Shown here: positions 1 to 33,627 of the stretch, piece by piece
How the letters are laid out: each line of letters opens with the position of its first letter
Position numbering within the stretch: the stretch's first letter is position 1
Source of the DNA: a virus
Taxonomy: Duplodnaviria; Heunggongvirae; Uroviricota; Caudoviricetes
Virus record (IMG/VR): IMGVR_UViG_3300042923_001771
Span: 128,001 to 175,445 of that record
Reading direction: 5' to 3' (one strand)
DNA: 47,445 nt
Notes under the pieces: model-generated
Seen by the model: only the letters and a program-made list of their open reading frames with translations
What the model was told of the DNA's origin: nothing
Databases searched by the model: none
Translations under genes and position numbers: made by a program

Positions 1-681
1 GTCATACAAATAACGGAAGTCTAATTCATCAAATTTAACTCCAGTTATAGAATCTAGCTGAATTGGACCATAGTGAATGCACTGATTGGAATCTTTTAGT
101 GTTTGTTTCCAAGGAAGTTCAGGATTATTCTTATTTACATATCCATCATCCAAATCTGGTCCTAGAGCGTCTGTATCACACTCTATCTTGAATTCAGTGT
201 TCCAAGCTGGAAGTTGCGCCCATGGTCTATTTTCCCATCTATTACTTCTATACATACTTCTGTCAGGTCTGCCTGAGAGATAAATACCGTCAGATCCAGA
301 AGGAGTAATGGTTTCAAGAATGTCAAGTTGGTCATCATTCATAACTTGTTCGTAATCGTCTGGATGTTCAACCTTAATTTGGTCAACTATATCATTTATT
401 TGTTTTTTTAATTCTTTTGTAGTATCAACACCAGAGTATTCACTATTCATATCATCAAAAAGGCGTTTTATCGGATATGTTTTCATTTGATCAGGTGTGT
501 GCACTGAAGGTTTAAATACATCTCTGTATGGTTCTGCTTCTCCAGTTCCATATGAAACCCTATCAACATAAGTTCCTGGAACTATTTGACCGTCGTCAAC
601 TATCATTGTAAATAATTGACTATTTGTTACGTGATAAAGGTTTATTTTTTCCCATGCTTTTTTCTTAAGCAATCGTTTCAT
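1..681 (-). CDS. ADP-ribosyltransferase-fold-like protein, paralog of 27642..28619; runs off the window edge and is absent from the ORF track
   Basis: Manual translation from ATG at 681 is open to position 1: MKRLLKKKAWEKINLYHVTNSQ...SDGIYLSG...FKIECDTDALGPDLDDG...PWKQTLKDSNQCIHYGPIQLDSITGVKF. RBS AAGAGG upstream. LYHxT plus GIYLS resemble ART strands 1 and 2. Confidence 0.75.
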   Translation of the reverse strand, partial: MKRLLKKKAWEKINLYHVTNSQLFTMIVDDGQIVPGTYVDRVSYGTGEAEPYRDVFKPSVHTPDQMKTYPIKRLFDDMNSEYSGVDTTKELKKQINDIVDQIKVEHPDDYEQVMNDDQLDILETITPSGSDGIYLSGRPDRSMYRSNRWENRPWAQLPAWNTEFKIECDTDALGPDLDDGYVNKNNPELPWKQTLKDSNQCIHYGPIQLDSITGVKFDELDFRYLYD

Positions 682-700
682 AATAACACCAACCTCTTTT

Positions 701-1204
701 TTAATTTTGCCATCCTCTTTTAGAAGCATCGTAATTTCCTTCTCCCAAGCCAAATCGACTGACTTGTCTTTGAGAATTACCCATGTATTGAATTTCGACA
801 GGTACAGAAGTTAAACCTAATTGTATTGCTGCTTCTCTACGATGATTTCCTTCACTAATTTTAGCGGTTCCATCTTTTTCAACTACAACGTGAAGTGGGT
901 TTTGAATGCCGTTTGCTTTAATATCTTCCAAGAATCTATTCCACTTATCTTCTCTATAATCGCCAAAGTAATTATACGTCTGTCCGTCTTTAGGGTTAGT
1001 CCATTTTTCCCATTGTCTTTGTTCACCATTGCGTCCGGGTAAATCAAGAATATCTGCTAAATCAATTTCTCCTTGTTGAATTGCTGTAGTTGTCGTTGGA
1101 CCCGCTTCGTAACTACTATTTGGACCTTCATCTATATGAAGTTTTGGTAAACCTACCCATCCAGCCTTTTTAATAAAGTTAGCAACTTTTTTTAATCTGC
1201 TCAT
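701..1204 (-). CDS. ParB/sulfiredoxin N-terminal-like domain protein
   Basis: LEDIKANGIQNPLHV...ISEGNHRREAAIQLGLTSVPV is the ParB/Srx GxHR motif; strong RBS AAGGGGG. Confidence 0.8.
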   Translation of the reverse strand: MSRLKKVANFIKKAGWVGLPKLHIDEGPNSSYEAGPTTTTAIQQGEIDLADILDLPGRNGEQRQWEKWTNPKDGQTYNYFGDYREDKWNRFLEDIKANGIQNPLHVVVEKDGTAKISEGNHRREAAIQLGLTSVPVEIQYMGNSQRQVSRFGLGEGNYDASKRGWQN

Positions 1205-1274
1205 TTTTCTTCCCCCTTATTTCTATCCTTTTAATAAATAATGAAAACAGTTGCTAATAATTACATTATGCAAT

Positions 1275-1297
1275 AAAAAAAGAGTGATTTCTCACTC
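1275..1297 (-). terminator. Intrinsic terminator
   Basis: GAGTGA-4nt-TCACTC hairpin followed by a T-run on the minus strand, after ORF 1301..1714. Confidence 0.6.
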
Positions 1298-1300
1298 CTC

Positions 1301-1714
1301 TTACTTTGGTAAAAAGTTTTTAAATACCTCAAAAATGGTTTCCACTTGATTTGATTCATTAAGTTCAAATCTATAGTGATGCCCATATTTATGTTTTGAT
1401 TTTTTGTATTTTGGTATTCCAGCTGCTAAGAGTTGACTTCTCATCTTATGACCATCGAGTGACCAGTTACCGATAGAAAGATGTAATGCGCTTTTATCGA
1501 TTTCTTCATCTTTCCCTCTGAGATAAAGTTTAATTGAATTAACAGGACAATTGTTATCAAATTCATATCTCACTAGAATTGTGTTGTCATTTATTTTCAT
1601 AACATCTTTATCGATTTCTTGTCCAGTTAGAATATGAATTACAAATTGTGAATCAATATAGTCTATTACGTGTTCATGTTTATTTGCAATTTCGTTTATA
1701 TCCAAGCTTTTCAC
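1301..1714 (-). CDS. Hypothetical protein
   Basis: 137-aa ORF with GAGAGG RBS-like sequence and a downstream terminator. Confidence 0.65.
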   Translation of the reverse strand: MKSLDINEIANKHEHVIDYIDSQFVIHILTGQEIDKDVMKINDNTILVRYEFDNNCPVNSIKLYLRGKDEEIDKSALHLSIGNWSLDGHKMRSQLLAAGIPKYKKSKHKYGHHYRFELNESNQVETIFEVFKNFLPK

Positions 1715-1755
1715 CTCTCTTATATTATAATTAAAAGATAAAGTTTTATAAACAG

Positions 1756-1784
1756 TTTACAAAAACACAAGATTGTGATATAAT
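1756..1784 (+). promoter_or_regulatory. SigA-type (early-like) promoter, class I
   Basis: TTTACA-N17-TATAAT with extended TG, followed by ATAAGG; recurrent in the window. Confidence 0.8.
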
Positions 1785-1807
1785 ATTCTTATAAGGAGGT
1801 ATTGAAC

Positions 1808-2383
1808 ATGCGACTTAGAACTCCAGAATTTATTGATATAGATAAAAAATTATTTAACAAATATCCTGTAAAATTTCCATTAAAGGATCGTGTTAGTATT
1901 ATTCATGGTCTTAATGGTACTGGTAAAACAAAAACTTTAGAAGTACTTGTAGAGTACTTTAAGGAGCAGGGTGAACATGTAATTTATTTTCCATCTGATA
2001 GAGTTTTTAGTTTTGATATAGATGAAGTTGAAGCTCTTGAAGTTATGTGGGCTATGACTGATGAACAAAACATATTGAAGAAATACGGATTTCATATTTA
2101 CCCTTGGGATATTAATGATATGAAAGGGCAATATATTGACTCTGGAATGTTGCAACTTATTAATTTATTTGGAACATTGGCTTTTCTCGATAAACCTTCA
2201 GTGATAATAATTGATACGCTTGAAAGAAGTTTGCACGCAGTTATAAGAAGATCAATTCTTAAAGATTTGATGGCTGTTCCTAAAATTCACAAACTAATAG
2301 TAACTTCTTATTCTCCTGAAGTTTACAGAGATTTTGAAGATTTCACAATTAATATTAGAGAATGCGTTCAATTAGGAAGTTAA
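1808..2383 (+). CDS. Minimal ABC/AAA_21-like ATPase with degenerate Walker B and H-loop
   Basis: Walker A HGLNGTGKT; YFPSDR; DSG signature remnant; IIIDTLERSLH (consensus IDEPExxLH); IVTSYSP (consensus THSP). ATG at 1808 fits the RBS better than 1802. Confidence 0.7.
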   Translation: MRLRTPEFIDIDKKLFNKYPVKFPLKDRVSIIHGLNGTGKTKTLEVLVEYFKEQGEHVIYFPSDRVFSFDIDEVEALEVMWAMTDEQNILKKYGFHIYPWDINDMKGQYIDSGMLQLINLFGTLAFLDKPSVIIIDTLERSLHAVIRRSILKDLMAVPKIHKLIVTSYSPEVYRDFEDFTINIRECVQLGS

Positions 2384-2432
2384 ATTAGCACTATTTACTA
2401 TATATAATACTCTCAATAAGGAGGGTGTTATA

Positions 2433-2786
2433 TTGGACGGATCGCATTATACTCTAAGATTATTTACTCATCAAAATCTTAGCAACCCACAAAATGGAGA
2501 TGCTTATATAAATTACCATGGTGAGTTAGAGATTTACCACAACTACCGTTGGAATAAAATGGTTTCACAACAAAACTTTTATAGCATGTTAAGTGCATCA
2601 CCCGTTAAGCCACCACCAATGAGTCATGAAATTTGGAGTAGAAATTTCAGTAAAAATCTAGATCAAATAGTTGAAGCTCTGATATTATTAATGATTAGAA
2701 ATGGCACGTTAGAAAATGTTCAAGAATTTAAAGATTTATTGGATTCAAAAAAAGTAGCAGAAGAACTAACTCAATATGAAAAATAA
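2433..2786 (+). CDS. Hypothetical protein, paralog of 22582..22878
   Basis: Shared PQxGDxY...HNxxW and LxLxIR...VxEFKxxxxxxKxAxEL; RBS AAGGAGG. Confidence 0.75.
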   Translation: MDGSHYTLRLFTHQNLSNPQNGDAYINYHGELEIYHNYRWNKMVSQQNFYSMLSASPVKPPPMSHEIWSRNFSKNLDQIVEALILLMIRNGTLENVQEFKDLLDSKKVAEELTQYEK

Positions 2787-2791
2787 TTAAA

Positions 2792-2820
2792 AGAGAGTGA
2801 TTAAATCGCTCTCTTTTTTT
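2792..2820 (+). terminator. Intrinsic terminator
   Basis: AGAGAGTGAT-TAA-ATCGCTCTCT plus T-run. Confidence 0.7.
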
Positions 2821-2860
2821 ATTGTAATAACGTTTAATTGAACTAACGGGAGGATTGAAA

Positions 2861-3838
2861 ATGAAACGTCTTGCAAAATTAAAAACAGAAGTAACAAGTG
2901 ATGAATTTTCATTAAGAGTTTTAGCATTTGATGACGAATCTGAAATGCCAGAAGAGCCCGTAATGTGGCTTGATGCGACGCTTGAATATGAAAACGAACA
3001 TCCATCTTATTATGAATCAGAAGAAGAAATTGAGTACTACAATGAACAAGAACATGACAAAGGAAAACTCAAATCTATTTATGTAAGTGTAATTGATTTT
3101 GACAATAAATTGTATTTTGCGATGCCTGAAGCTAGACAAAGAGCTTGTGGTTCTACTCTTATAAAAAAATTTATAAGATACTACACTCAACATTATGGTA
3201 AAAATACAGACAATTGGGTTCCTGTACATGCATCATTTGCAAATTACGATCTCCAAGAACAATTTAAAAATGCTGTAGATGCAGGGATTTTTCCTCCGCA
3301 ATCAAAAGATATGATTATGGAAACAACAGAAGAGAATTATAGAAAACAAAGAACTTACAATTTAGATAATCGTAGATTGTTAAATGAAATGAAAGAAAAC
3401 CCACAGAAATTTTTTGGAAATTTTGAAATTGTTGGAGGCTTCATGATCAACCCTAAGTTTTCACAAATCGAAGAATTAATTACTAGTGTTAGAGATAAAT
3501 ATGGTTTTGAGTTTAAGAATTTTGAGGGCATGATTGAAGATGGCGATCTCACGGTTATGTTACCAACTGCAGGTCATGATTTACCATACGATGCAACAAA
3601 TTTTTATTTTGATCCAGATTCAAAAGTTGTTGTCTTTAGTAATGCTGAATCACCAGATAATATTAAGAGAATAATTCAAGGTAAAGAATCAGTTATGGCG
3701 AGTTTGTTTGACTCAGTAACTGAAATTTGTTTTGGTTGGTTGGGTGGAGATCCTATTACGCCACAAGAGTTTTTCTCGTCACAAGAAAAAACTGCAAGCA
3801 ACATTAGGAGATTATTAAGAAACATAAAGAGAGGGTAA
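2861..3838 (+). CDS. Phage protein, possible GNAT-fold acetyltransferase; paralog of 5033..5968
   Basis: YVSVIDFD...MPEARQRACGSTLIKKF resembles GNAT motif A; extensive identity with the 5033 ORF; ATG at 2861 after GGGAGG. The fold call is tentative. Confidence 0.6.
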   Translation: MKRLAKLKTEVTSDEFSLRVLAFDDESEMPEEPVMWLDATLEYENEHPSYYESEEEIEYYNEQEHDKGKLKSIYVSVIDFDNKLYFAMPEARQRACGSTLIKKFIRYYTQHYGKNTDNWVPVHASFANYDLQEQFKNAVDAGIFPPQSKDMIMETTEENYRKQRTYNLDNRRLLNEMKENPQKFFGNFEIVGGFMINPKFSQIEELITSVRDKYGFEFKNFEGMIEDGDLTVMLPTAGHDLPYDATNFYFDPDSKVVVFSNAESPDNIKRIIQGKESVMASLFDSVTEICFGWLGGDPITPQEFFSSQEKTASNIRRLLRNIKRG

Positions 3839-3870
3839 CTCTCTTTTTTTTGTCATAATCATGATATTAA

Positions 3871-3916
3871 TTTACAAAATATGACAATTAGTTACACAGT
3901 ATTACAAGATATGACA
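3871..3916 (+). promoter_or_regulatory. Array of five 10-bp-phased hexamers upstream of codY
   Basis: TTTACA (3871), ATGACA (3881), GTTACA (3891), ATTACA (3901), ATGACA (3911); inverted TGTCATA at 3851. Confidence 0.5.
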
Positions 3917-3931
3917 CAATTTCTCACACTA

Positions 3932-3962
3932 TGTTAAAAAAATTTTATACTTTTTTAATAAT
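3932..3962 (+). promoter_or_regulatory. Class II recurrent promoter-like element TGTTAAA-N19-ATAAT
   Basis: One of about 9 intergenic copies with identical spacing. Confidence 0.55.
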
Positions 3963-4140
3963 ATAAAATCAAGAAAAACAATAGACTTAAAAACAAGTAT
4001 TGTTGCATTAAGAAAGGAAGCGTAGTTCGTGTTTAATACGCAATAGGGTGAATATTTAAAAAATATATACTAACAGGCCAGATACGTTGCAAAGTACATT
4101 ATAATACAATAATATTAAAAACAACTTGGGGGTTCTCATA

Positions 4141-4830
4141 ATGAATGTAATTGAAAAGGCTAAAACTTTTTCTGCTTTACTACAACAAAGCGGCGCAGAT
4201 GTTGTTGAAACAAATAATATGATTAACGCTTTACACGAAATTACAAATGCAAATGTAACATTTTTAAATACAAATGGAGAAATTAAAAATCAAGATGTGA
4301 AACATCTTGATTTAGATTTTCCATCAAATAATCAAATTAATAGTATTAATGATGTTGAGCAAGTAACGCAATTAGAAAATGGATTTGCAGTTATTGCTCC
4401 AATTTGCAATAATAGTAAACGTCATGGTTCAGTTGTTGTTGTTACTAGAGACTATCCAACACACGAAGATATTGCTTTTTCTAATATTGTTGCATCATTG
4501 ATTGGTAAATCAATCGTTATAACTTCATCAAATGAAGAAGAAGTAGACAATAGAAATAAGATGGCTGCAAGAAATGCACTTAAATCTTTAAGTTTTACTG
4601 AGATTTGTGCAATACAAAGTATCTTTGATGAGCTTCAAGGAAATGAAGGTTTACTAGTAGCTTCAAAAATTGCAGATAGAGTTGGATTCACAAGATCAGT
4701 TATTGTAAATGCTGTACGCAAACTAGAAGGTGCAAGCGTTGTTGAGTCACGTTCTTTAGGTATGAAAGGTACTCATATTAAAATTCTTAATAATCACCTC
4801 TTGCCAGAACTTGCAGCACTAAACAAATAA
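4141..4830 (+). CDS. codY: CodY-like transcriptional regulator with a shortened GAF domain
   Basis: C-terminal EGLLVASKIADRVGFTRSVIVNAVRKLEGASVVESRSLGMKGTHIKILN is the CodY wHTH; N-terminal ALLQQ; about 230 aa versus about 259 in hosts. Confidence 0.93.
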   Translation: MNVIEKAKTFSALLQQSGADVVETNNMINALHEITNANVTFLNTNGEIKNQDVKHLDLDFPSNNQINSINDVEQVTQLENGFAVIAPICNNSKRHGSVVVVTRDYPTHEDIAFSNIVASLIGKSIVITSSNEEEVDNRNKMAARNALKSLSFTEICAIQSIFDELQGNEGLLVASKIADRVGFTRSVIVNAVRKLEGASVVESRSLGMKGTHIKILNNHLLPELAALNK

Positions 4831-4844
4831 TATTTTTATTCAAA

Positions 4845-4876
4845 ATGAGACCAAATTAATTTGGTCTCATTTTTTT
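4845..4876 (+). terminator. Intrinsic terminator after codY
   Basis: ATGAGACCAAAT-TA-ATTTGGTCTCAT plus T-run. Confidence 0.8.
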
Positions 4877-5032
4877 ATACATAACTCTATAGAATGAAAC
4901 ACAGTATTAAAACTCATTTTTAATAGATTATTATTTAGATAAAACATTTTAGCTTAAAAGTTTAAATCTTGATAATAAAAAAGATTACATTTAATATTCT
5001 AAAATAGAAACAAAACACAGGAGGAAAGTGTA

Positions 5033-5968
5033 ATGAGTATTTTTGAAAGAATGGCTGAATTAAAGTCTGACATACTAAATGCAACAGATAGAGATTTAAA
5101 AGTAGTTGTTTATGATACAGAAGCTAAAGATCCAAGTAAGCCAGTAGCGTGGTTAAATGCTAATTTTCAATATGAAGGAAATACTCCAAATCTACTTTAT
5201 GTCGATGTAATTGATTTTGATGATGACGCTCTTTTCAGTATGCCTAAGAATAGAAAGGACATGTGCGGAGCTGTACTTTTGAAGAAATTCATGAGATACT
5301 ATAGAGATAATTTCGGAAAAGACAACAAGAAAGACAACCCGTGGTTACCTGTTGGTGCTAATTTTATCAATTATGAAATACAAGAAAAATTTGACAAATT
5401 ATTAGATTCAGGTATGTTTCCACCACAATCAAATGATCATGTTCAAAGAACTACAAAAGATCAATTTAATAAAGAACTACACTATAATAAAGATAATAGA
5501 GAAATGATGCACAACATAAAGACTAATCCAGGAGATTACTTTACAACATTGCACATTGAAAATAATTATTCAATAAACGATTCTCTTTCTGAGATTAATA
5601 GTGCTTTAGAAAAATTTACGAAGGAATTCCCTGAAGCAGCTGAAAATAGCTATAGGTTTGATATTTTATCTGGGCACATTAAAGATGGTAATGTTTACGT
5701 CATGCTACCAGTAAATGATGAATTACCTTCAGATCAAGAAACCAGTTTTCAATATTATAAGCAAGAGGGAAATTTGTTCTTTGAAAATGCTTTCACATTA
5801 GAAGATGCTAAAAATTTTGTTGGTGATAATAAAGAAAACATCAAGAAATCATTTGATGCAGTTCAAACAATTCAATGCATAAACACAGATAAACTACCAG
5901 TTGGATCTTTATTTAATGACAATACAGAGGCGAGTATGATTAAGAGATTAATTAAACGTTCAAAATAA
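5033..5968 (+). CDS. Phage protein, possible GNAT-fold; paralog of 2861..3838
   Basis: YVDVIDFD...MPKNRKDMCGAVLLKKFMRYY...WLPVGANFINY...GMFPPQS shared with the 2861 ORF; RBS AGGAGG. Confidence 0.6.
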   Translation: MSIFERMAELKSDILNATDRDLKVVVYDTEAKDPSKPVAWLNANFQYEGNTPNLLYVDVIDFDDDALFSMPKNRKDMCGAVLLKKFMRYYRDNFGKDNKKDNPWLPVGANFINYEIQEKFDKLLDSGMFPPQSNDHVQRTTKDQFNKELHYNKDNREMMHNIKTNPGDYFTTLHIENNYSINDSLSEINSALEKFTKEFPEAAENSYRFDILSGHIKDGNVYVMLPVNDELPSDQETSFQYYKQEGNLFFENAFTLEDAKNFVGDNKENIKKSFDAVQTIQCINTDKLPVGSLFNDNTEASMIKRLIKRSK

Positions 5969-6086
5969 AAAAGAGACGATAACAATAGAGTTATCGTCTT
6001 TAGTGCTTTTTCTATTATATCGATTAAGCTACATATTATTTAACATTAGATGCTCTTATTGTGTTTGAAAGGGAGGGAATTATAAG

Positions 6087-9000
6087 ATGGCAAATGAAGA
6101 TTTTAAGTTTGACACAAGTTATAATCCAGACTCAGCTTTTACAAGGGTTAAGTTTGGTGTAAATAGACCAATTTTAGAAACAGAATTAAATGAATTACAA
6201 AAAATCAATGAAGAACGTTTGATGAATTTTATCAGACAAAATTCACCTACTGGTTTTTGGGAAATCGTGAAGAGGGATTTTATTGGTGCCCCTATCGTAT
6301 ACAACCCTAATGGAAAAGAAAATTCAATAGCTATTTCTCCCGCTAGATTGCTTTTAAATGGTTATAACGTTGTTGTTGAGGGTAACGATACTGTTAATGG
6401 CTTCAGTGGATATACGATTATTGATTTTGGGGAAGCTCCGGATAGCGGGTCCTCATTTTACAATTTTGCGTATTTGGAGTTATGGTTTGAAGAGCTTAAT
6501 TCTCAATCCACTATATATAAAAATGGTTATATTGATGGTGATGCATTACCTAATAATCTAGTTGATGATAGGGTTGGTGGAGAAACATCAAGAAGAGTTG
6601 CATTGAGATACAAATTCAACGTAAAAAATGATGTTGACTTTGATAGATGGCCACAAGGTTTTGGCTTTGAAAACATTTCTGAATACTCACCTATTTATGC
6701 TAGTGGGCCTAATAATGTTTCGATCACTAATCATAAATATCTATTTATCAGTGCTCTAAGTCCAGAATTTAGAAACACAACTTTTTATGGTGACAGTGGT
6801 TTATATGTTGCTGGTAGACCAGATCACCCTAATACCAACGTTGATTTTGGAATACTTGAAAACTATATTTTTGCTATTCCAGTTTTGAGTGTTAAGAGAA
6901 GAAACAAAAATACTTATTCTTCTTCTAATTCAAATGGTGCTGATAAATATATCAATGAAGGTTCTTTAAGTAATAGACCAGATGGTTTATTTTTTAATAG
7001 GATTGACCCAAGAGATGTTAATGACTTAAGAAAAACAGTAACTTTAGGTCAAGTAAATACAACTAAGATGTTGGATCAAAGCCTTAAGAATTTAATGAAT
7101 GGTGCACTTAAAACCAGTAAAAAGGAAACTCTCTTAAGATCTCAATTTGGTGTAGCACCAATTGAATCTTATGAAGATACAAGCTATAATAATAATGCTA
7201 TTTTTCATGTTAAATTCAGAAATCAAAATTTAACTCCAACTATAGGTTTAGTGGGAACTGTCGATGGGACACCAGAGTATCATTTGGCAGCTTCAGGTTA
7301 TGGACTATCATTGGATGGGAATATCGAAGTAAAATATCCAATCAATACATTTTATCAAGAAGCTGGCACAATCGATTTCTTCTTAAAACCATATTGGGAT
7401 GGAGCAGACCAAAACATATCTCAAACTATTTTATCTGTAAGTAACGAGACTGGGTATCCATTGATGCTTTTAAAAAAAATTCAGGGCAAGTTGGTATTAA
7501 GACTTAATTATAGTCAAGACGAGACTTTATCAACATATACAATGGCTTATTTAGATCAAAATCCAATCTATAATAATGAGATTTATCACATTAGATTAAC
7601 TTGGCAATCATCTATTAATGGTAGTGATTCTAAAATCTATATCAACGGTAATCTTGCAGCTTCTGGTATATACATTCACTCTGCATTAGCTCCAAAATAT
7701 ATAACATTAGGTGCAAAGAACGAAAATATCAATTCATACTCTCCGGATTTCGTTGGTTGCGTAATTGATGAATTAGTTATGTATAGTAAAGTACTTGATA
7801 ATGGATTCTTACAATTAAGTAGTGATATTGTAAATGGTGATGCTAGAATTCACTCTTCATTTAATGGTGTTTTAAGTAGTTTTAAAGATAATACAAATAC
7901 TCAGACCACTATTACTCCAGTAACAACTGTTCCGGCAAGTACTAGTTTAACATTATCTGTACCATATGGATTAACTATTGATAGCAGTTCTCCATTAAAT
8001 GTTTACAATCCACAAACTAACGTTTCTTATACTGGGACGTGGGATAATTTTGTTAATAACACAGCAGTATTTACGCCTACAGACCCAGCGACATTCACTG
8101 GAGAAACAATTTGGGTAGTACATGGAGTTACATTGTCTGGTGGATTTGGAATTAAAGATATTCCAACAAAAGTATTGAAGGCTACAATTAATAATGAAGA
8201 AATGTCTTTTGCTAGTACTATGGAAGATAAAAGACAAATTACGCTTGTTAATGCAGATAACACTATAGAAAAAGAGCACAAAGCATTTGACTATAATTCT
8301 GATCGTGATGCTCGATCAGCTTTCGCTAGATTGCTTGAATACAAGTTTATAAGTAATGGTACCAATATTTATGTGTTGCCAGCAACATTATATGGACGTG
8401 CAGTTATTGGTATCAAGAAGGTTGATAAACCATTATCATCTGTATTAAAAAATGCTAATGGTTCATATGAAATTATTTTGATCGAAGAGCTACCATATAA
8501 CGAAACTTTCATTGTAACAGTTGCACTTGGTGGATATGCTTTTGAATATGAAACTTATACAAAATCCCCAATTGTAAACACAATGAGAGCTGCAACTATT
8601 AAAATACCAACTACTGGTAATACTAAGATTTATGCGATTTCAGCTACGGGAGCAATACCAGGGAGCAACATTGTTGATCCTGCTGGTGGTGTAATAGTAT
8701 CCTTCTTAGGTTTGGATGGATATGATGAAGATTACAATTCAGTTGATTTTGGTACTAATGTTTTTGTAACTGGTAGTCAATTCAATTATTTTGCAAATGC
8801 TACAGTTACTGGTATTGGTACTCCAATCATCAATATAAATTTTGTTACAACACCACAGGCTGGTCACTTTATTGAAATTCCAGTGTTAGTAAGTTATCAA
8901 CCAAGAGCTACCGATATAATTTCAGTTTGGTATGATTATGTCCCTTATCAAGGAGTTTTGAATAAGAACATTCAAAAAGATTTGAGACGTTTAACAGATT

Positions 9001-9551
9001 GGAAAATATTTTGTACAACTTTAGGTTCTGGTAAAATGCTGGTAAATAAAATTAAAGATAAGAGTATTAACAATGCTTCAAATAGATTACCTGGCGGACA
9101 AAATTATTCATATTTGTTAGACGGTTCTGATATTGAGTTTGAAGGGGAACAAATGACAATTCCTGCATCTTATGGCGCTAGTTACAGTGTTAATAGAAAA
9201 TTAGTATTTAGAAATGAATTTACTGAATTAGTATTTAACAATGAGTATGATGATGATGTGAATTCATTAAATACTGAATTTAGTATTTCTAAACTCTATG
9301 GCCAGAATCATCAAGATGCTTTTATTTCATCTTTAATTAGCGAAGTCAATTTTTGTATTCAAGATACAAAAGTAGCAATCAATAAATATCTTGGAGCTGC
9401 TTGTTTAGTGGCAGATGAAGAGGGGAATATTTTCTTACTTGTAATTGGTGAAATTAAAACATCAAAAACCAAATCTTCAATTATTAAGCCAACTCACGGT
9501 GATCTATTCAAAATTGAAAACAACCCAATTGTTGTTGTTAGAAAATATTAA
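6087..9551 (+). CDS. Large virion structural protein (baseplate/tail-associated) with a LamG/concanavalin-like domain
   Basis: N-terminal KFGVNRPILETELNELQ typical of large-phage baseplate/tail proteins; central GTIDFFLKP...YHIRLTW...KIYING...IDELVMY is LamG-like; T/N/G-rich beta composition. Confidence 0.75.
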   Translation: MANEDFKFDTSYNPDSAFTRVKFGVNRPILETELNELQKINEERLMNFIRQNSPTGFWEIVKRDFIGAPIVYNPNGKENSIAISPARLLLNGYNVVVEGNDTVNGFSGYTIIDFGEAPDSGSSFYNFAYLELWFEELNSQSTIYKNGYIDGDALPNNLVDDRVGGETSRRVALRYKFNVKNDVDFDRWPQGFGFENISEYSPIYASGPNNVSITNHKYLFISALSPEFRNTTFYGDSGLYVAGRPDHPNTNVDFGILENYIFAIPVLSVKRRNKNTYSSSNSNGADKYINEGSLSNRPDGLFFNRIDPRDVNDLRKTVTLGQVNTTKMLDQSLKNLMNGALKTSKKETLLRSQFGVAPIESYEDTSYNNNAIFHVKFRNQNLTPTIGLVGTVDGTPEYHLAASGYGLSLDGNIEVKYPINTFYQEAGTIDFFLKPYWDGADQNISQTILSVSNETGYPLMLLKKIQGKLVLRLNYSQDETLSTYTMAYLDQNPIYNNEIYHIRLTWQSSINGSDSKIYINGNLAASGIYIHSALAPKYITLGAKNENINSYSPDFVGCVIDELVMYSKVLDNGFLQLSSDIVNGDARIHSSFNGVLSSFKDNTNTQTTITPVTTVPASTSLTLSVPYGLTIDSSSPLNVYNPQTNVSYTGTWDNFVNNTAVFTPTDPATFTGETIWVVHGVTLSGGFGIKDIPTKVLKATINNEEMSFASTMEDKRQITLVNADNTIEKEHKAFDYNSDRDARSAFARLLEYKFISNGTNIYVLPATLYGRAVIGIKKVDKPLSSVLKNANGSYEIILIEELPYNETFIVTVALGGYAFEYETYTKSPIVNTMRAATIKIPTTGNTKIYAISATGAIPGSNIVDPAGGVIVSFLGLDGYDEDYNSVDFGTNVFVTGSQFNYFANATVTGIGTPIININFVTTPQAGHFIEIPVLVSYQPRATDIISVWYDYVPYQGVLNKNIQKDLRRLTDWKIFCTTLGSGKMLVNKIKDKSINNASNRLPGGQNYSYLLDGSDIEFEGEQMTIPASYGASYSVNRKLVFRNEFTELVFNNEYDDDVNSLNTEFSISKLYGQNHQDAFISSLISEVNFCIQDTKVAINKYLGAACLVADEEGNIFLLVIGEIKTSKTKSSIIKPTHGDLFKIENNPIVVVRKY

Positions 9552-9566
9552 GCTGGGAGTATTTCG

Positions 9567-9761
9567 ATGAAAAGACTTATTAAAAAGGCTAAACAAAATT
9601 TTGCCGTTGGAGATAAGGTAATTTATAAAACTCATCCTTACGACAATACTACAATATATACAGTTGAAGAGGTTTTGACGGGTGGAACTTATTTTATAGC
9701 AAATGAAGAAACAGCTTATACGGATATTAACGGTAGAAACTTGGAAAAGTTAAATTCATAA
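9567..9761 (+). CDS. Small SH3-like hypothetical protein with the basic N-terminal tag MKRLIKKA
   Basis: FAVGDKVIY beta pattern; RBS GGGAG; appears co-transcribed with the structural gene. Confidence 0.7.
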   Translation: MKRLIKKAKQNFAVGDKVIYKTHPYDNTTIYTVEEVLTGGTYFIANEETAYTDINGRNLEKLNS

Positions 9762-14061: not shown

Positions 14062-14607
14062 ATGTTTAAAAAACAAGAATTCAGTAAATTGACTGATGTT
14101 GCTGGCGTTTCAAATGCAATTAAGAAAATAGTACCAAAAGGATATACGAATGATGATGTCGTCTTTGTTTGTGTTGGATCAGATAGAAGCACTGGAGATT
14201 CTCTTGGCCCTTATGTTGGAACGCAATTGCAAAAGATGGGTTACACTAACGTCTATGGTACATTGATTGATCCAGTTCATGCTATGACTTTGGAAGAAAC
14301 TTTGGAAAAACTTCCAACAAATAAATATGTAATTGCTATTGATGCTTGTTTAGGACAAGTTTCAAGTGTTGGCACAATCTTTATGAGAGAAGAACCATTA
14401 AAGCCTGGTGCTGGAGTAGATAAAGAATTACCTCCGGTTGGAGATTGTGCTATTTGTGGAGTTGTAAATGTTTCTGGATTTATGGAATACTTTGTACTTC
14501 AAAATACTCGATTGAGCTTGGTCATTGGAATGGCTGAAACAATTGTTGATGCCATTAGTGAAGCATTACCAACAATTCAGCGCCGACAATTTTATTTTAA
14601 GCATTAA
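14062..14607 (+). CDS. yyaC: Spore protease YyaC family
   Basis: VCVGSDRSTGDSLGP, VYGTLIDPVHA, IAIDACLG, PLKPGAGVDKELPPVGD, VLQNTRL. Confidence 0.92.
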   Translation: MFKKQEFSKLTDVAGVSNAIKKIVPKGYTNDDVVFVCVGSDRSTGDSLGPYVGTQLQKMGYTNVYGTLIDPVHAMTLEETLEKLPTNKYVIAIDACLGQVSSVGTIFMREEPLKPGAGVDKELPPVGDCAICGVVNVSGFMEYFVLQNTRLSLVIGMAETIVDAISEALPTIQRRQFYFKH

Positions 14608-27167: not shown

Positions 27168-27222
27168 ATTTTAAAATTTTCCATTAGTTTTATTAGATTA
27201 ATAATAAAAGGAGTTGAATAAA

Positions 27223-27627: not shown

Positions 27628-27663
27628 AAAAGAAAGTAGTCTTAATTGACTACTTTCTTTTTT
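27626..27663. terminator. Bidirectional terminator overlapping the 3' end of the 27642 ORF
   Basis: AAAAAAGAAAGTAGTC-TTAATT-GACTACTTTCTTTTT. Confidence 0.8.
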
Positions 27664-28619
27664 ACTAATCTTTTTGCTGTTTGTTGTTGACCAGAATTAT
27701 TTTGTTGCTCAGTATTGTATTGCATCTCTAAGTCGGAAAAAGGTATTTCATCAGCACTGTCAAATAAACATAAAATACTGCTATTAAAGACAGTTTTAAT
27801 ATTCTCAATAGTGTTTGGATATTGAGAAAAATAATCCATAAGTTTATTTACCGTAGTATCGTAAATGCTTAATTCATTACTTTCAGCATTATAATTAATG
27901 TCTATTCCTGAAGGACTTATAACATGCATGAACTTTACCACTATGCTAACATCTCCATTAGTGATTGAACCCCTATTTGAGTAAATTGGAGCACCGTACT
28001 CGCCACAAATATTAGCATAATTTGCAATGGACTGATTAATAATTAACCCAGTACTATCAAATATGTAACCCGCATATTTTAATTTATTGTAAAAATCTTC
28101 ATGAGTAGATTTCTTTGGTTTTTCTTTGATGTAAGCGTCCTCTTCTTTTTCAAATAAGCTTTTCTTTTCTGCGTATACTTGTTCAGCTTTGTCAATAGTT
28201 GTTTCTGTAACTTCTTTCATAGTGTAAGGGTTATACAAATAAACTTTTTTAATATAATCTGTCGTTACAATACCTAAAAGTTTAACTTGATCGTTATGAT
28301 TAGAGCTATCTTGCCAAGTTTTAGCAAAAGGAGCATCGTTGTCGTCTGGTTGTAATGCATCTTCTGATACGTCAACCTCTAAAACGACTTTTGGACCTTC
28401 TCCTTTAGCCCAATTTGCATAAGTTTTAGCTCTATCAATTGTTGTAGCTAGAAAAGTAAATCCATCAAATAATATTGGGTCCGCGCCTGCAGGTCCAGCA
28501 CCATTATTTTTTTGCTCGTTCGGATAGATGCCTCCCATTTGTATGATTCCAAGTAAACCCTCATAACTTGTACCATGATACAAGGTTTTTCCAAATGCTT
28601 TCTTAATCAATCTTTTCAA
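27642..28619 (-). CDS. ADP-ribosyltransferase-fold-like protein
   Basis: LYHGTS...FTFLATTIDRAKTYA...VVLEVDV follows the H-Y-type ART pattern; likely TTG start at 28619 after GGAGG, giving MKRLIKKA. Confidence 0.7.
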   Translation of the reverse strand: MKRLIKKAFGKTLYHGTSYEGLLGIIQMGGIYPNEQKNNGAGPAGADPILFDGFTFLATTIDRAKTYANWAKGEGPKVVLEVDVSEDALQPDDNDAPFAKTWQDSSNHNDQVKLLGIVTTDYIKKVYLYNPYTMKEVTETTIDKAEQVYAEKKSLFEKEEDAYIKEKPKKSTHEDFYNKLKYAGYIFDSTGLIINQSIANYANICGEYGAPIYSNRGSITNGDVSIVVKFMHVISPSGIDINYNAESNELSIYDTTVNKLMDYFSQYPNTIENIKTVFNSSILCLFDSADEIPFSDLEMQYNTEQQNNSGQQQTAKRLVKKKVVN

Positions 28620-28703
28620 AGTTTTTACCTCCATGATTTGACTTTATTAGAGAATAAATAAACATGGACAAAATAAAATACTTGTTAAATTTTTAAATTT
28701 CAG

Positions 28704-28732
28704 TTTACAAAATAAAGAAAGTATGATATAAT
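28704..28732 (+). promoter_or_regulatory. Class I SigA-type promoter
   Basis: TTTACA-N17-TATAAT with TG. Confidence 0.8.
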
Positions 28733-28783
28733 TAATATGTACCTAAAAAAAATCCGTTCCTATTATATAAGGAGGTTTTAACA

Positions 28784-29227
28784 ATGTGGCTTGGACTGCT
28801 CGGAGTGTCATTGGTGTTAATGACTATTGGTTTATTAATGATATTTCTTACTGTATTTAAAGCATATTTAAAGTTTGTATTTAGAGGATTAAAAAAATGG
28901 ATAGAAGCAATATCATTCTATTTCTTTTATTTATTCGATAAAAAATTTGTTGTCGATAAAGGCAAATCTGTTCCTTACAAGGATGAAATTCAAATAAGAA
29001 TTGAAGCAGAAGAAGTTAGAAAACAAACATTATATGCAGATAGAAGTGCCAAAGAATTTCTTGGCGCAGTTAATTTCGTTGAAAGTTTAAAGGTAAAATA
29101 CCCTATGGCTGATGAGTACTTATTTCACAATATGACAGAAAATGTACTAAATGCTAAAAACATAAATATCTTTAAAGAACTTGAAGAAACAGTAAAACAC
29201 AGTCATAACACAAACAAGGCAAATTAA
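28784..29227 (+). CDS. Membrane-anchored hypothetical protein
   Basis: N-terminal TM; RBS AAGGAGG. Confidence 0.7.
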   Translation: MWLGLLGVSLVLMTIGLLMIFLTVFKAYLKFVFRGLKKWIEAISFYFFYLFDKKFVVDKGKSVPYKDEIQIRIEAEEVRKQTLYADRSAKEFLGAVNFVESLKVKYPMADEYLFHNMTENVLNAKNINIFKELEETVKHSHNTNKAN

Positions 29228-29299
29228 AATTGCATACAGGAATACATAAGATAAGCTTATCAAAATAGGTAAGCTTTTTATTATGTAGATAAAAAACAG

Positions 29300-29328
29300 T
29301 TTACATTGTTAAGAAAATATGATATAAT
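29300..29328 (+). promoter_or_regulatory. Class I SigA-type promoter
   Basis: TTTACA-N17-TATAAT with TG. Confidence 0.8.
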
Positions 29329-29361
29329 AATAATATAAGGTAATCAAGGAGGAAGAATAAA

Positions 29362-31395
29362 ATGTCAAAGGCAATTAAATTAAAGATGGACAAATTGGTT
29401 GACACAATTCAACTACACAATCACAAATATTTCGTTGAAAACAATCCAGAACTTCCTGATTTAGTATTTGATCAATTAGTAAAGCAACTACAATATTTAG
29501 AAGAAAAATATCCTGAGTACGCAAATGGACAAAGTCCAACTAAGTTTGTTGGTGAACGTTCTGACATTAATACCTTTGAGCAAGTTAAACACAAACGCCC
29601 TATGCTTTCACTTTCCAAAGCGATGAATATGGATGAACTTAAAGAATTCTTATACAAACTTATTGCATCTGGTGTTCGCGACTTCACACTTGAACCTAAA
29701 ATTGATGGATTGGCATTGTCCTTGTATTATGAAACAGGTACACTTGTAAGGGCAGTTACAAGGGGAGATGGAACAACAGGTGATGATGTTACTAAAACAG
29801 CGTTATGTATCAACGACATCCCTAAGAAATTATCATTTAGCTTCACTGGAGAAGTTCGTGGAGAGGCATATTTAAAGAAATCAGTCTTAGAGACTTTCAA
29901 TAAGACTCGCGAATTACTTGGTCTTAAGAAATATAAAAATGTACGTAATACAGCATCTGGCTTAATGAAACGTAAAGAAGTAACTGAAGAAAACTACATC
30001 TTGAGCTTCTTTGCTTACAGTATTTTTGATGACAAGAGAGAGTTCTTCACATATGAAGAATCAATTATGTCATTGAAAGATATGGGTTTCCCAACAACGT
30101 TATTTACTAGAGATAACGTCAAGCATTTATTAATTTCTCATGCTATTACAATTAATGATTTTAGCAACATGCAACTCGAAAACATGTATGAAATTGATGC
30201 AGCGCTTGAAAAAATTGTCAATGACTGGACTGAAATTAGAGATGAATTAGATTATGATATTGATGGTCTAGTTTTGAAAGTAAACGATACTAATGAACAG
30301 CAAACTCTTGGTATGGACGACCATTCTCCAAATTGGGCTACAGCTTATAAGTTCCCAGCAACTGAAAAAGTAACAACTCTTCTTGGAGTAGAATGGACAA
30401 TGGGCAATAAGGGTAACATTACTCCTTGTGCTATCATTGAGCCAGTAGAGATTGGTGGCACCGATGTTGTTGGTCCTACATTGCATAATGTCGATGAATT
30501 GAAAAAGCTAGGAGTTATGATTGGCGATCAAATCGTTGTATCTCGTCGCGGAGACGTTATTCCTAAAGTAGAAAGAGCATTACCAGAGTTGAGAACTGGA
30601 GATGAAACTCCAATTGAAATTCCAACTCATTGCCCAGCATGCGGAGCACCAACAGTTGTTAAAAGTGCTTTCATGGAATGTTCTGCTGGATTTAATTGTT
30701 CTTACATGGAATTTGCTAGAGTACAGAATTTTGTTCACTCGGTAGAAATCGACGAACTTGGTCAAGTTCTAATTGAAAAAATGCTTGAAGCAGAAATTAT
30801 TGAAGATTTTGCAGACCTATACGATGTAAAATCTGAGCAAATCGAAACACTTGAAAGAATGGGCAAACGTTCTGCAGAGAAAGCAGTTAAGAACATTCAA
30901 GCTACTAGAAGTGTAGATTTGCACAAGGTAATTGCTGGCCTTACAATTGATGGCGTAGGTTCAAGTACAGCGAAAGACTTAGCAAATAAATTCCAAGGTT
31001 GGGAAGCATTCCTTTATGCCACAGAAGAACAACTTCGTTCCATTGATGGTATTGGGCCAATAGTAGCTAAAAATATCGTTGAATGGTGTCAAAACCCAGT
31101 CAATCAAAATCTGATTGGCAAACTCATTGATAGAGAAATTGGCAAATATGAAGTATTTGTACCATCTTCTGGTAAGTTGAATGGTAAAGTATTTGCAACT
31201 AGTGGTACTCTAACTATTGGTCGCAAGGAACTTGAAAAAACTATCCTTGATAATGGTGGAGAGTTCACAAGTATTAAAAAAGGTGTTACTCACTTTATTG
31301 CTGGTGAAGGTTGCGTTGAAGCTAAAAAGGACAAGGCAGCAAAGCTTGGAGCAAAAGTAATTTCTGGACAAGACTTCTTTGAAATGGTAAAGTAA
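29362..31395 (+). CDS. ligA: NAD-dependent DNA ligase
   Basis: MLSL, EPKIDG, TRGDG, EVRGE, DGLVLK, AYKF, TLHN, GDVIP, C4 Zn finger, HhH motifs, BRCT. Confidence 0.97.
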   Translation: MSKAIKLKMDKLVDTIQLHNHKYFVENNPELPDLVFDQLVKQLQYLEEKYPEYANGQSPTKFVGERSDINTFEQVKHKRPMLSLSKAMNMDELKEFLYKLIASGVRDFTLEPKIDGLALSLYYETGTLVRAVTRGDGTTGDDVTKTALCINDIPKKLSFSFTGEVRGEAYLKKSVLETFNKTRELLGLKKYKNVRNTASGLMKRKEVTEENYILSFFAYSIFDDKREFFTYEESIMSLKDMGFPTTLFTRDNVKHLLISHAITINDFSNMQLENMYEIDAALEKIVNDWTEIRDELDYDIDGLVLKVNDTNEQQTLGMDDHSPNWATAYKFPATEKVTTLLGVEWTMGNKGNITPCAIIEPVEIGGTDVVGPTLHNVDELKKLGVMIGDQIVVSRRGDVIPKVERALPELRTGDETPIEIPTHCPACGAPTVVKSAFMECSAGFNCSYMEFARVQNFVHSVEIDELGQVLIEKMLEAEIIEDFADLYDVKSEQIETLERMGKRSAEKAVKNIQATRSVDLHKVIAGLTIDGVGSSTAKDLANKFQGWEAFLYATEEQLRSIDGIGPIVAKNIVEWCQNPVNQNLIGKLIDREIGKYEVFVPSSGKLNGKVFATSGTLTIGRKELEKTILDNGGEFTSIKKGVTHFIAGEGCVEAKKDKAAKLGAKVISGQDFFEMVK

Positions 31396-31455
31396 ATATT
31401 TATCAGGCTGCTTCGGCAGCCTTTCATACATACTAAAATTAGGAGATGATTTAGA

Positions 31456-32229
31456 ATGAATATTCTTATTACTGCTGGTGGAACAAAAGAAGCTATTGAC
31501 AAAGTACGTCATATCACGAATATGTCTAGCGGGTCTCTTGGACGTGAGATTGCTGCATACGCAACCACTAAAGAATCAATTAAAGAAATTCATTTCGTTG
31601 GTCCAAAAGAAGCATTCCCAAAAGTTAAGTTTGGTGATATGCAAGCTGTTGATAAATATGTTGGATATGTTGTTGATTCTGTCGAAGACCTTTCAAGTAC
31701 GCTTGAAAAAATTCTTACTACAAAAAAGATCGATGTAGTCATTCACTCTATGGCAGTAAGCGACTACACTGTTGATTATGTATGCAATTTAGAAGACATG
31801 GTGAACGGCATATTTGAGTATATGAGTGTTGATACTGAGTGTTGTCCTGCAGATGTAATTGATTACATAAAAAAGGGAGAATTTAGAATTGATACAAATT
31901 CTAAAATGTCTTCAAAAAGTGAAGATCCTATTATTAAATTGACACCTACGCAAAAAGTAATTGGTAATATCAAGAAATGGGCTCCAGATACAGTGCTTGT
32001 AGGGTTTAAACTTTTGGAAAATGTATCTGATGATGAATTAATTAAGGTAGCTCGTCAACAAATGCATAAAAATAAATGTGACTTTGTTTGGGCAAATGAT
32101 ATTAAACGTATTAGAGAGACCGGTCACCAAGGGTTATTGATTGAAAATGACGGCGTGACTTGTTTCCATGGTAAAGAGTCAATTGCTAAAGGTATCATCG
32201 ATGCAGTTATACATTATGTTAAGGAGTAA
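31456..32229 (+). CDS. coaB: Phosphopantothenate--cysteine ligase (monofunctional)
   Basis: ILITAGGTKEAIDKVRHITNMSSGSLG, IHSMAVSDY, LVGFKL, WAND. Confidence 0.92.
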   Translation: MNILITAGGTKEAIDKVRHITNMSSGSLGREIAAYATTKESIKEIHFVGPKEAFPKVKFGDMQAVDKYVGYVVDSVEDLSSTLEKILTTKKIDVVIHSMAVSDYTVDYVCNLEDMVNGIFEYMSVDTECCPADVIDYIKKGEFRIDTNSKMSSKSEDPIIKLTPTQKVIGNIKKWAPDTVLVGFKLLENVSDDELIKVARQQMHKNKCDFVWANDIKRIRETGHQGLLIENDGVTCFHGKESIAKGIIDAVIHYVKE

Positions 32230-32235
32230 CTTAAT

Positions 32236-32823
32236 ATGAGAGCACCTAATGGAGAAACAATTAACCAATTCATGAATAAAACATTTGTTGTTGGTATTAC
32301 TGGTGGAATTGCATCGTATAAAGCTATTGGCTTATGTAGTTATCTTAAGCAACAAGGCGCTAGCGTATTTCCCGTTATGACACGTGGAGCAGCAAAAATG
32401 ATCCAACCAGCTTCAGTTAGAGGTGTTGTAGGTAGAGACCCTCTAATTGAAGTTTGGGAAGAGCCAATTCCAAATGCAATTGCTCATATCTATTTAGCTG
32501 AACAAGCTCATGCGATTATTGTGGCTCCAGCAACAGCTCATACAATTGCTAAACACCATGCTGGGTTGGCAGATGATATGCTAACTAATATTCTTTTAGC
32601 GACAGAGAATAAAGAGAAAATACTTTTCTGCCCAGCAATGAACGTTCATATGTGGCAACACCCCGCAACACAAAGAAATGTAAATGAAATGAAGAGTTGG
32701 GGTATTCAATTTCTTGAGCCAACTTCCGGTAATCTTGCTTGTGGAGTAAATGATGTTGGTAGGCTCCCAGAAACTCCAGAAATTGTTGCAAAGATTAAGG
32801 AAATGACAGCATACAAAGCTTAA
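32236..32823 (+). CDS. coaC: Phosphopantothenoylcysteine decarboxylase (HFCD flavoprotein)
   Basis: GITGGIASYK, HIYLA, VAPATA, GLADDML, PAMNVHMW, GNLACG, GRLPE. Confidence 0.92.
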   Translation: MRAPNGETINQFMNKTFVVGITGGIASYKAIGLCSYLKQQGASVFPVMTRGAAKMIQPASVRGVVGRDPLIEVWEEPIPNAIAHIYLAEQAHAIIVAPATAHTIAKHHAGLADDMLTNILLATENKEKILFCPAMNVHMWQHPATQRNVNEMKSWGIQFLEPTSGNLACGVNDVGRLPETPEIVAKIKEMTAYKA

Positions 32824-32832
32824 ATAAGTTTA

Positions 32833-32869
32833 AAAATATCAGCTATTTTAAAATAGCTGATATTTTTTT
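32833..32869 (+). terminator. Intrinsic terminator
   Basis: AAAATATCAGCTATT-loop-AATAGCTGATATTTT. Confidence 0.8.
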
Positions 32870-32919
32870 GTGTTTAAATACGTATTCTGTAATAGAGTAA
32901 ATAAAAAGGAGTGAATAAA

Positions 32920-33627
32920 ATGGCACGTTTAAAGAAAGTCGCTGAACTTCAGGAGTTAAATGAGTTAAATATGTCATCTAACGTTTTGAATGTAATTATT
33001 CAAACTAAAGACGCGAGTGACACTGTAAGTAATGTTGTTTATCGTAGATTAATGAACAACAACACTAAGCTTGTTGTAGAGATTTGGGAATTAACAGGTG
33101 AAAAGTATGCAGTATTCTCTGGTCACTATCAAGGACAATGGACTGCGAATAATATTGAAATGAGCGAAATTTTTGATAGCTTGAATGAAGCTCAATTGTA
33201 TGTTCAAACCGAACTTCAAGGTGAGGCAGAAGTAAACCAACTTATTGTTAGTTTTAAGAGACTTAATAATTACAAAAAGATTATGGCTAAAGGCGGAGAG
33301 CCTAACTATAATCAAATAGCTAAAGATTTTCAAAAAGAAGTAAATATTCCAGATGTTGAGATGCATCATAAGGAACATATCAATAAGTATTATGGGCAAT
33401 TTCAAGATTATATGAAACAATACTATCCAGAGTGGGCTAAATATCCTGCCTATATTTGGGGAGGTTGGGGTCACTTTACAAACCTAGTTAATCCTGATAA
33501 TAGTAAAGATGAGCCAAAAGAAGAAACTCCAAAAGAAGAAGCTACAGTTCCAGCTCAAACCTCTCCTGAGGTTGCACCGTCTGCACCAGTTGGCGGAGAT
33601 ATGGGCGGCGGTGGCGAAGGCGAATAA
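32920..33627 (+). CDS. Hypothetical protein with the basic N-terminal tag MARLKKVA and an acidic/Gly tail
   Basis: ATG at 32920 after AAGGAG; internal FKRLNNYKKIMA. Confidence 0.7.
   Translation: MARLKKVAELQELNELNMSSNVLNVIIQTKDASDTVSNVVYRRLMNNNTKLVVEIWELTGEKYAVFSGHYQGQWTANNIEMSEIFDSLNEAQLYVQTELQGEAEVNQLIVSFKRLNNYKKIMAKGGEPNYNQIAKDFQKEVNIPDVEMHHKEHINKYYGQFQDYMKQYYPEWAKYPAYIWGGWGHFTNLVNPDNSKDEPKEETPKEEATVPAQTSPEVAPSAPVGGDMGGGGEGE

Follow-up and report, generated by a model that had tools for sequence, protein, structure and literature searches.

Terminal tags in the window and on the contig

We examined the final 47 kb (positions 128,001 to 175,445; 47,445 nucleotides, hereafter the window) of IMG/VR record IMGVR_UViG_3300042923_001771, a 175,445-bp single contig of a tailed virus (33% G+C), for a short basic peptide, the tag, that sits at the ends of otherwise unrelated proteins. 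Seven proteins of the window carry it, at nine terminal sites. Two of the N-terminal copies belong to a second flavour, M[STA]RLKKVA (type 2), which differs from the MKRLIKK[AS] form (type 1). Positions are those of the window unless the contig is named:

655..681, minus strand: N-terminal tag MKRLLKKKA of the ADP-ribosyltransferase-like (ART-like) protein 1-681, whose gene continues past the window start
1160..1204, minus strand: N-terminal tag MSRLKKVANFIKKAG (type 2) of the ParB_N/Srx-like protein 701-1204
2861..2884, plus strand: N-terminal tag MKRLAKLK of protein 2861-3838
3797..3835, plus strand: C-terminal tag SNIRRLLRNIKRG of the same protein 2861-3838
5933..5965, plus strand: C-terminal tag SMIKRLIKRSK of protein 5033-5968
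9567..9590, plus strand: N-terminal tag MKRLIKKA of the 64-aa protein 9567-9761
28596..28619, minus strand: N-terminal tag (TTG)KRLIKKA of the ART-fold protein 27642-28619
27645..27674, minus strand: C-terminal tag KRLVKKKVVN, preceded by QQTA, of the same ART-fold protein
32920..32943, plus strand: N-terminal tag MARLKKVA (type 2) of protein 32920-33627

These nine strings, together with an internal copy in 32920-33627 (FKRLNNYKKIMA, beginning at nucleotide 33253), translate as the initial annotation had read them and at the same coordinates, and a Shine-Dalgarno site is present at every N-terminal tag start. The start at 681 lies 20 nt beyond an upstream stop and the start codon at 28619 is a TTG, 8 nt past GGAGG. 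The C-terminus of the protein starting at 681, at contig position 127797, reads ..TTRLKKRAN.

The whole contig was called with a simple caller based on open reading frames, codons and Shine-Dalgarno sites (n = 225 genes). We found 126 of these 225 genes to have homologues in Bacillus phage G, mostly at 50-70% identity and in the same order as in the region at about 34-190 kb of the phage G record. The contig holds no counterpart of the phage G major capsid protein, portal or prohead protease, and it is thus a fragment of a phage-G-like megaphage and not a complete 175-kb genome. Among the phage G orthologues of tagged window proteins, those of 1-681 likewise begin MKRL, that of 701-1204 begins MKRLMKKS (type 1), that of 9567-9761 reads (L)KRLIKKS from an alternative start, and that of 32920-33627 begins MSYLRKIA.

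Across the contig, 14-15 proteins begin with M-[KS]-R-L-[IKV]-[KR]-x-[AS] and 4-6 end with it, so that about 8% of the proteins bear a basic peptide of 7-8 residues at one end or at both. A loose regular expression gave 14 N-terminal, 5 C-terminal and 5 internal matches in the 225 genes, corresponding to densities of 0.0156 over the first four positions and 0.0014 over the 16 C-terminal residues, against 0.00011 at internal sites (N-terminal density about 140 times the internal one). Composition-matched shuffles of each protein yielded 0.04 N-terminal matches (maximum 2) against the 14 observed, and 0.15 C-terminal matches (maximum 2) against 5. The motif is therefore commoner at the termini than in such shuffles, the comparison by which the initial annotation had proposed to judge it. 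After removal of the tag, the tagged proteins of the contig fall into at least 12 unrelated families. The claim of at least seven unrelated tagged proteins in the window held for the number of proteins; they represent five independent families, because 1-681 and 27642-28619 are paralogues, as are 2861-3838 and 5033-5968 (33% identity).

Within the tag, the arginine is encoded by AGA, CGT, AGG or CGA and the leucine by TTA, CTT, CTA, TTG or CTG, and the isoleucine and lysine codons vary too. Because of this synonymous variation, it is the peptide and not the DNA that is under selection; a signal acting on DNA or translation was ruled out on this ground and by the C-terminal copies. A signal peptide was rejected as well: no hydrophobic stretch follows the tag, and the IMG/VR matches in which one does follow come from small membrane proteins and secreted lysins that are unrelated. 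The proposal of the initial annotation that one short modular address peptide sits on unrelated proteins was supported. The peptide runs in a single N-to-C direction whichever terminus it occupies, and it is selected at the protein level.

The labels given to the tagged proteins fared less evenly. Of two ART-like assignments, the fold was confirmed for 27642-28619, the N-terminal domain model of which matches ADP-ribosyltransferase folds. The ParB/Srx and SH3-like labels correspond to weak matches (ParB_N, E 1.3e-3; SH3/Tudor-like, E 0.018), the GNAT-like label of 2861-3838 and 5033-5968 found no support in Pfam, and the supposed virion structural gene at 6087-9551 had no family match. Similarly, the reported lack of class I and II promoters before tagged genes amounts to a trend, with an extended -10 element in 1 of 13 tagged versus 31 of 126 untagged upstream regions, and the same holds for the lack of a TGTTAAA-N19-ATWAT element upstream of tagged genes. 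A TAGAG motif picked by eye as a shared promoter of tagged genes proved non-specific. Strong hairpins resembling intrinsic terminators lie only 15-55 nt ahead of several tagged starts, namely 1204 (minus), 2861 (plus) and 32920 (plus) in the window and 2872, 6733 and 108640 on the contig, and therefore leave little or no room for a sigma-70-type promoter.

Besides the tagged genes, the window encodes ClpP, ClpX, gyrase-like, ligase-like and CoaBC-like proteins, HU and a CodY homologue. The last (4141-4830, plus strand; HTH_CodY E 8e-26, CodY GAF-like E 3.5e-13) is flanked by the tagged paralogues 2861-3838 and 5033-5968. Another gene at 14062-14607 (plus strand) encodes a DUF1256 protein (YyaC/spore-protease-like, E 1e-52; phage G homologue at 41% identity), a third protease-type gene in the lineage. 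Elsewhere on the contig, a Tubulin/FtsZ-family GTPase at 47745-48872 (L003:7745-8872) is 66% identical to its phage G homologue and has a weak TubZ-like C-domain match.

Conservation of the tag in phage G and related phages

We trained a position matrix on the tags of the contig and applied it to phage G and its relatives, with a control for phage G in which each N-terminal column was shuffled separately so as to keep the position-specific composition. In phage G, 30 proteins were N-terminally tagged, compared with 1.5 (maximum 6) in the shuffles, and 14 compared with 0.05 at a stricter threshold. Seven related genomes and contigs together encode 2045 proteins, of which 86 carried an N-terminal tag; the tag started at residue 2 in 63 cases and followed the consensus M-[K/S]-R-L-[I/K/V]-[K/R]-x-[A/S]. 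At positions 2-4, KRL ranked first among the tripeptides in six of these genomes and shared first place in the seventh, while two other N-terminal strings, MNWYK and MNRYDI, were absent from all seven. The arginine and leucine are almost invariant among the 86 tags, although the matrix that selected them was itself built on these two residues; both are also invariant in two family alignments. A small residue (A or S) occupies position 8 in 61 of the 86.

The N-termini of these AT-rich genomes are rich in lysine, which is what an origin by chance or composition would build on. Chance origin is nevertheless excluded by the shuffles, and the recurrence of the motif at C-termini and its retention across orthologues of 30-60% identity speak against it too. 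Together with the codon variation described above, this leaves a compositional effect, or a signal at the level of DNA or translation, with practically no probability.

Orthologues retain the tag even where the flanking residues have diverged. The two flavours swap between orthologues, so that the two types are interchangeable. An alignment of 12 homologues of the ART-like family shows no change at M1, R3 or L4, and most members end in Q-T-A-x(0-4)-[KR]RL[ILMK][KRQ][KR]; C-terminal tags may have up to about 10 residues after them. The untagged ART paralogues of phage G start exactly at the catalytic domain, which indicates that the tag is an add-on module. In agreement with this, the AlphaFold model of 27642-28619 gives residues 1-8 and 313-325 a confidence (pLDDT) below 50 and places both tags in terminal extensions, so that according to the model the tag sits in flexible ends outside the folded domains.

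Two further features were observed in tagged proteins. One phage G protein has two tandem N-terminal copies (MKRLKRQS..QSRLKKKS). Long Asp/Glu-rich stretches recur either between the ART domain and the C-terminal tag or as a C-terminal tail (phage G 70929-71849; homologues P0002-P0004; the tail of phage G gp20, a head-module protein described below).

A scan of IMG/VR with a degenerate DNA pattern coding for MKRLIKK[AS] returned 84 stretches, most of which fell in signal peptides or membrane anchors or inside unrelated proteins. The matches at N-termini of soluble proteins occurred in large low-GC contigs only, often several per contig, and all tag-bearing contigs that were tested had a capsid gene of the phage G type or further homologues of phage G genes. 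The tag is thus a trait of a single phage lineage. Within that lineage the relatives range from two contigs whose capsid gene is 86-89% identical to that of phage G (G004 and G005) to a distant 416-kb genome, estimated to be 99% complete (G006), with identities of 58% for the terminase, 44% for ClpX and about 36% for other shared proteins. This distant relative still has 14 N-terminal tags and another relative (G007) has 13, against about one in shuffles. In one further IMG/VR contig (G008, 158,834 bp; C1:67274-70519), the phage-G-type major capsid gene consists of six matching pieces split by stop codons, possibly interrupted by inserts or a broken copy. A literature search on the tag strings found no paper.

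The head module and proposed loading of tagged proteins

In phage G, several proteins encoded in the stretch from the terminase to the major capsid gene carry the tag: gp9, gp10, gp13, gp17 and gp20 have it at the N-terminus and gp5 at the C-terminus. After curation, in which two starts were corrected, 6 of 24 head-module genes were tagged compared with 29 of 639 elsewhere (Fisher p = 9e-4); the automated call gave 4 of 24 against 29 of 639 (p = 0.027). In the six phages with a head module (phage G and G001-G005), members of the gp20 family are tagged throughout, and in the gp9, gp10 and gp17 families the tag is present either as such or in a degenerate form. The orthologues of these four proteins in G001-G005 switch tag flavour and sometimes gain a C-terminal copy. 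PHROG and Pfam gave no family for most of the cargo proteins, nor for gp9, gp10, gp17, gp20 or gp21 of phage G.

The gp20 gene directly follows the prohead protease, the usual position of a scaffold; the protease matches the PHROG head maturation protease family and had no match in Pfam. In the gp20 alignment, the arginine and leucine of the tag are invariant, and one orthologue (G001) has a 66-residue N-terminal insertion that opens with a second tag copy. Structure prediction gave a flexible tag, then a three-helix hairpin (pLDDT above 90) and then a disordered acidic tail, so that gp20 would be scaffold-like by its gene position and predicted shape. The same genome (G001) also encodes, immediately upstream of the prohead protease, a homologue of the 2861-3838/5033-5968 family with the C-terminal tag NKRLIKKNSSK. 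On the contig, a second and shorter ClpP-family protein, distinct from the ClpP that is paired with ClpX, carries the PHROG label head maturation protease (41828-42376; L003:1828-2376) and is distant from any head gene.

We ranked loading into the phage head first because the tag is linked to head-assembly proteins. The tag would then be a short linear address specific to phage-G-like megaphages, most likely one that loads enzymes into the head, and we hold this reading tentatively, as a possibility that falls somewhat short of an even chance. The tag would dock its bearer onto a component of the assembling prohead, and the tagged enzymes would be co-assembled into the head and later delivered with the DNA. 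The proposed cargo includes ADP-ribosyltransferase-fold proteins, a GNAT, a ParB/Srx-like protein and a zinc ribbon, and in phage G also a NUDIX fusion. The tag might be removed after the small residue at position 8, either by the prohead protease or by an M16 peptidase encoded next to the terminase; many C-terminal tags are preceded by Q-T-A. The initial annotation had suggested that host-modifying enzymes are loaded into the head, and the four tagged families of the head module lend this idea indirect support, even though the folds it had assigned to the cargo are partly unsupported.

Known packaging signals offer a precedent. The capsid-targeting sequences of T4 are N-terminal propeptides of 10-20 residues (PMC5694885), and their bearers include the internal proteins IPI-III, Alt and gp24 (Mullaney and Black 1996, as cited in PMC5694885). 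Like these, the tag is a short peptide (about 10 residues from Met1) common to otherwise unrelated proteins, its bearers include an ADP-ribosyltransferase fold, and it is also found on proteins of head assembly, here the gp9, gp10, gp17 and gp20 families of the six phages, with the scaffold role of gp20 a putative one. Unlike the T4 sequence, which is acidic and hydrophobic, the tag is basic and unrelated in sequence; it also occurs at C-termini, even at both ends of one protein, and on 3-8% of the proteome instead of a handful of proteins. The phage-G-lineage tag further differs in having no Glu-type cleavage motif, and the head protease of these phages had no Pfam match; loading and cleavage are putative here.

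In P1, the N-terminal 30 residues of DarB direct packaging (PMC9024508). This signal, too, is N-terminal, and it sends a host-modifying or anti-restriction enzyme, or a reporter, into the head, the role that we propose for the tag. The tag has one consensus on dozens of proteins, whereas the signal in P1 exceeds 9 residues in length and the Dar proteins share no consensus for it.

The scaffold of phage 80alpha and the SaPI1 protein CpmB share a capsid-binding C-terminal helix, and the cargo-loading peptides of encapsulins work at either terminus. In these systems, as in ours, a short terminal peptide is common to a scaffold and other proteins; there it binds the inside of an HK97-fold shell, which for the tag is proposed by analogy. 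The tag differs from the 80alpha/CpmB helix in sitting at the N-terminus of the scaffold-position protein, and its capsid binding site is putative.

Several points weigh against loading into the head. The head module is not on the contig studied here and the link rests on relatives, and the role of gp20 as a scaffold would follow from gene position and predicted shape. Between 3% and 8% of all proteins would have to be head cargo. The head receptor and the cleavage of the tag are putative, and in the ART-fold proteins just 3-4 residues separate the tag from the first strand, without a Glu-type protease site. Many non-structural proteins were detected in published phage G particle proteomics (PMC12484599), and the main text of that report is silent on tagged proteins. 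Finally, the tag occurs together with ClpXP just as well as with the head module, most relatives being fragments and the complete ones having both, and co-occurrence thus cannot separate loading into the head from recognition by ClpXP.

Possible roles in proteolysis, processing or membrane binding

Two genes at the end of the window make a reading by ClpXP conceivable:

45489-46073, plus strand: ClpP (Pfam CLP_protease, E 6e-59)
46126-47445, plus strand: ClpX, 75% identical to phage G gp258

The tag could be a degron or tethering motif for the phage or host ClpXP, as the initial annotation had also considered, in which case the tagged accessory proteins would be short-lived and removed on schedule. 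We consider this unlikely. A ClpXP that could read the tag is available, since ClpP and ClpX are encoded by the contig, phage G, G006 and G007, that is, by every sufficiently complete relative. Published ClpX signals of the C-motif-2 and N-motif-2 classes include RAKKVA, HIKKAS, RRKKAI, MKRAV, STAKL and TNTAKI (PMC9775585, PMC12723719), and parts of the tag (RLKKVA, LIKKA/S, MKRLI) and the lead-in of C-terminal tags (QTAK/STAK) resemble them. Both are basic terminal motifs, of 5-6 residues in the ClpX signals, that occur at N- or C-ends, and ClpX substrates can bear signals at both ends.

The rules of position and polarity differ, however. In E. coli the motifs are degenerate and tied to a given terminus, and C-motif-2 acts at a free C-terminus, whereas the tag is conserved much more strictly than known degrons, lies mostly at residue 2 or is trailed by up to about 10 residues at the C-terminus, keeps one polarity at both ends and is confined to one lineage. 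Moreover, the tag is enriched on head-module proteins, including the scaffold-position protein, that have no obvious link to ClpXP. The phage ClpX is a conventional one (about 65% identical to a bacterial ClpX in our alignment), in which both the zinc-binding domain and the GGRKHPHQE pore loop are intact, and altered specificity was rejected on these grounds. Because the phage enzyme is conventional, host ClpX would be expected to recognise the tag too, but within IMG/VR soluble proteins bear the motif in phage-G-like contigs only. At its C-terminus, the phage ClpX carries a basic extension (47350-47445, plus strand) that is lacking in the aligned bacterial ClpX; a similar one in phage G ClpX reads ..SSAKAKKTRKPRVKK..KAE. 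The extension is like the lead-in of C-terminal tags, without the R-L core.

A leader or docking peptide for another phage machine is quite unlikely in our estimate, and would take one of two forms: a presequence cut by an M16 peptidase for activation or sorting, or a translocation signal for a VirB4-like ATPase and its partner. For the first, the gene directly after the terminase in phage G, gp2 (L037:1980-3212), encodes a full M16 peptidase of the insulinase/MPP type with an HFIEH zinc site, thus an intact HxxEH enzyme; it has BLAST matches in G004, G005 and G006 and lies outside the part of the genome that our contig, as a fragment, covers. The mitochondrial processing peptidase (MPP), an M16 enzyme, cuts basic amphipathic N-terminal presequences two residues past a basic residue, as in LSRVAKRA-FSST with the cut at the hyphen (PMC3772902), and MKRLIKKA-FGKT is comparable. 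Since M16 enzymes cut such presequences, the M16 peptidase is a new candidate for trimming the tag.

The likeness to MPP presequences extends to a basic amphipathic N-terminal peptide of 8-9 residues that ends in Ala, in a phage lineage that encodes an M16 peptidase. It breaks down at position -2, where a cut after position 8 puts K, A, L, V or I (usually Lys or Val, and mostly Lys) and not Arg, as well as at the C-terminal copies, which are unfit for a presequence, and no import machinery is involved. We know of no specificity data for bacterial or phage M16B enzymes of the gp2 type.

The ATPase option draws on a VirB4-like protein (PDB 4ag5, E 4e-12; Pfam P-loop_TraG) among the late and structural genes of the contig; type IV secretion signals, by contrast with the tag, are C-terminal and less defined. 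This 570-aa protein (L004:6214-7926, within contig 66214-70848) is labelled terminase large subunit by PHROG and is actually a VirB4/TraG-type P-loop ATPase; its partner of 831 aa (L004:8353-10848) has no assigned family, and the true terminase of phage G, gp1, is separate from it. Neither the M16 nor the ATPase idea excludes loading into the head.

There is a slim chance that the tag forms a basic amphipathic helix with affinity for membrane or nucleic acid and simply gathers the enzymes at such sites. Its helical hydrophobic moment of 0.6-0.77 and net charge of +4 to +5 would suit such a role. The membrane-targeting helices of FtsA and MinD contain IKRL and LKRL, which gives the tag some likeness to them. 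Its mean hydrophobicity is 0.01-0.18, compared with about 0.40 for the MinD and FtsA helices, too low for membrane insertion of that kind. The near-invariant arginine and leucine and the nearly fixed position at residue 2 argue for a specific protein pocket rather than a generic surface, and the restriction of the motif to one phage lineage counts against a general membrane or nucleic acid binder.

A more specific version of head loading combines several of these elements: one position-independent basic code of seven residues, common to the scaffold-position protein and small head-core proteins, would send a changing set of 25-30 host-modifying enzymes per genome into the capsid for injection, with the phage M16 peptidase and not a T4-type protease as the trimming enzyme. 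As a whole we regard this version as doubtful. We infer more generally that the tag binds a head component and that its cargo reaches virions and is injected. What would be new with respect to known systems, and is partly supported by the data above, is a capsid-targeting code of the T4 kind that has another sequence, can be used at either end of a protein and marks far more cargo.

Should the ClpXP reading hold instead, it would explain why huge phages encode their own ClpXP. Phage G is cultivated and its particle proteomics has been published, and it is therefore the place for a direct test of shared address tags in huge phages. If tagged proteins are indeed loaded into the head, the sequence alone would reveal which proteins are injected by phage-G-lineage megaphages as infection starts, namely ADP-ribosyltransferase-fold enzymes, acetyltransferases, NUDIX enzymes and ParB/Srx-like proteins, and the tag would serve as a minimal signal for bringing foreign proteins into a capsid of very large size; if the code is in addition shared with the scaffold-position protein and trimmed by the M16 peptidase, the injected effector set of the whole megaphage clade could become readable from sequence.

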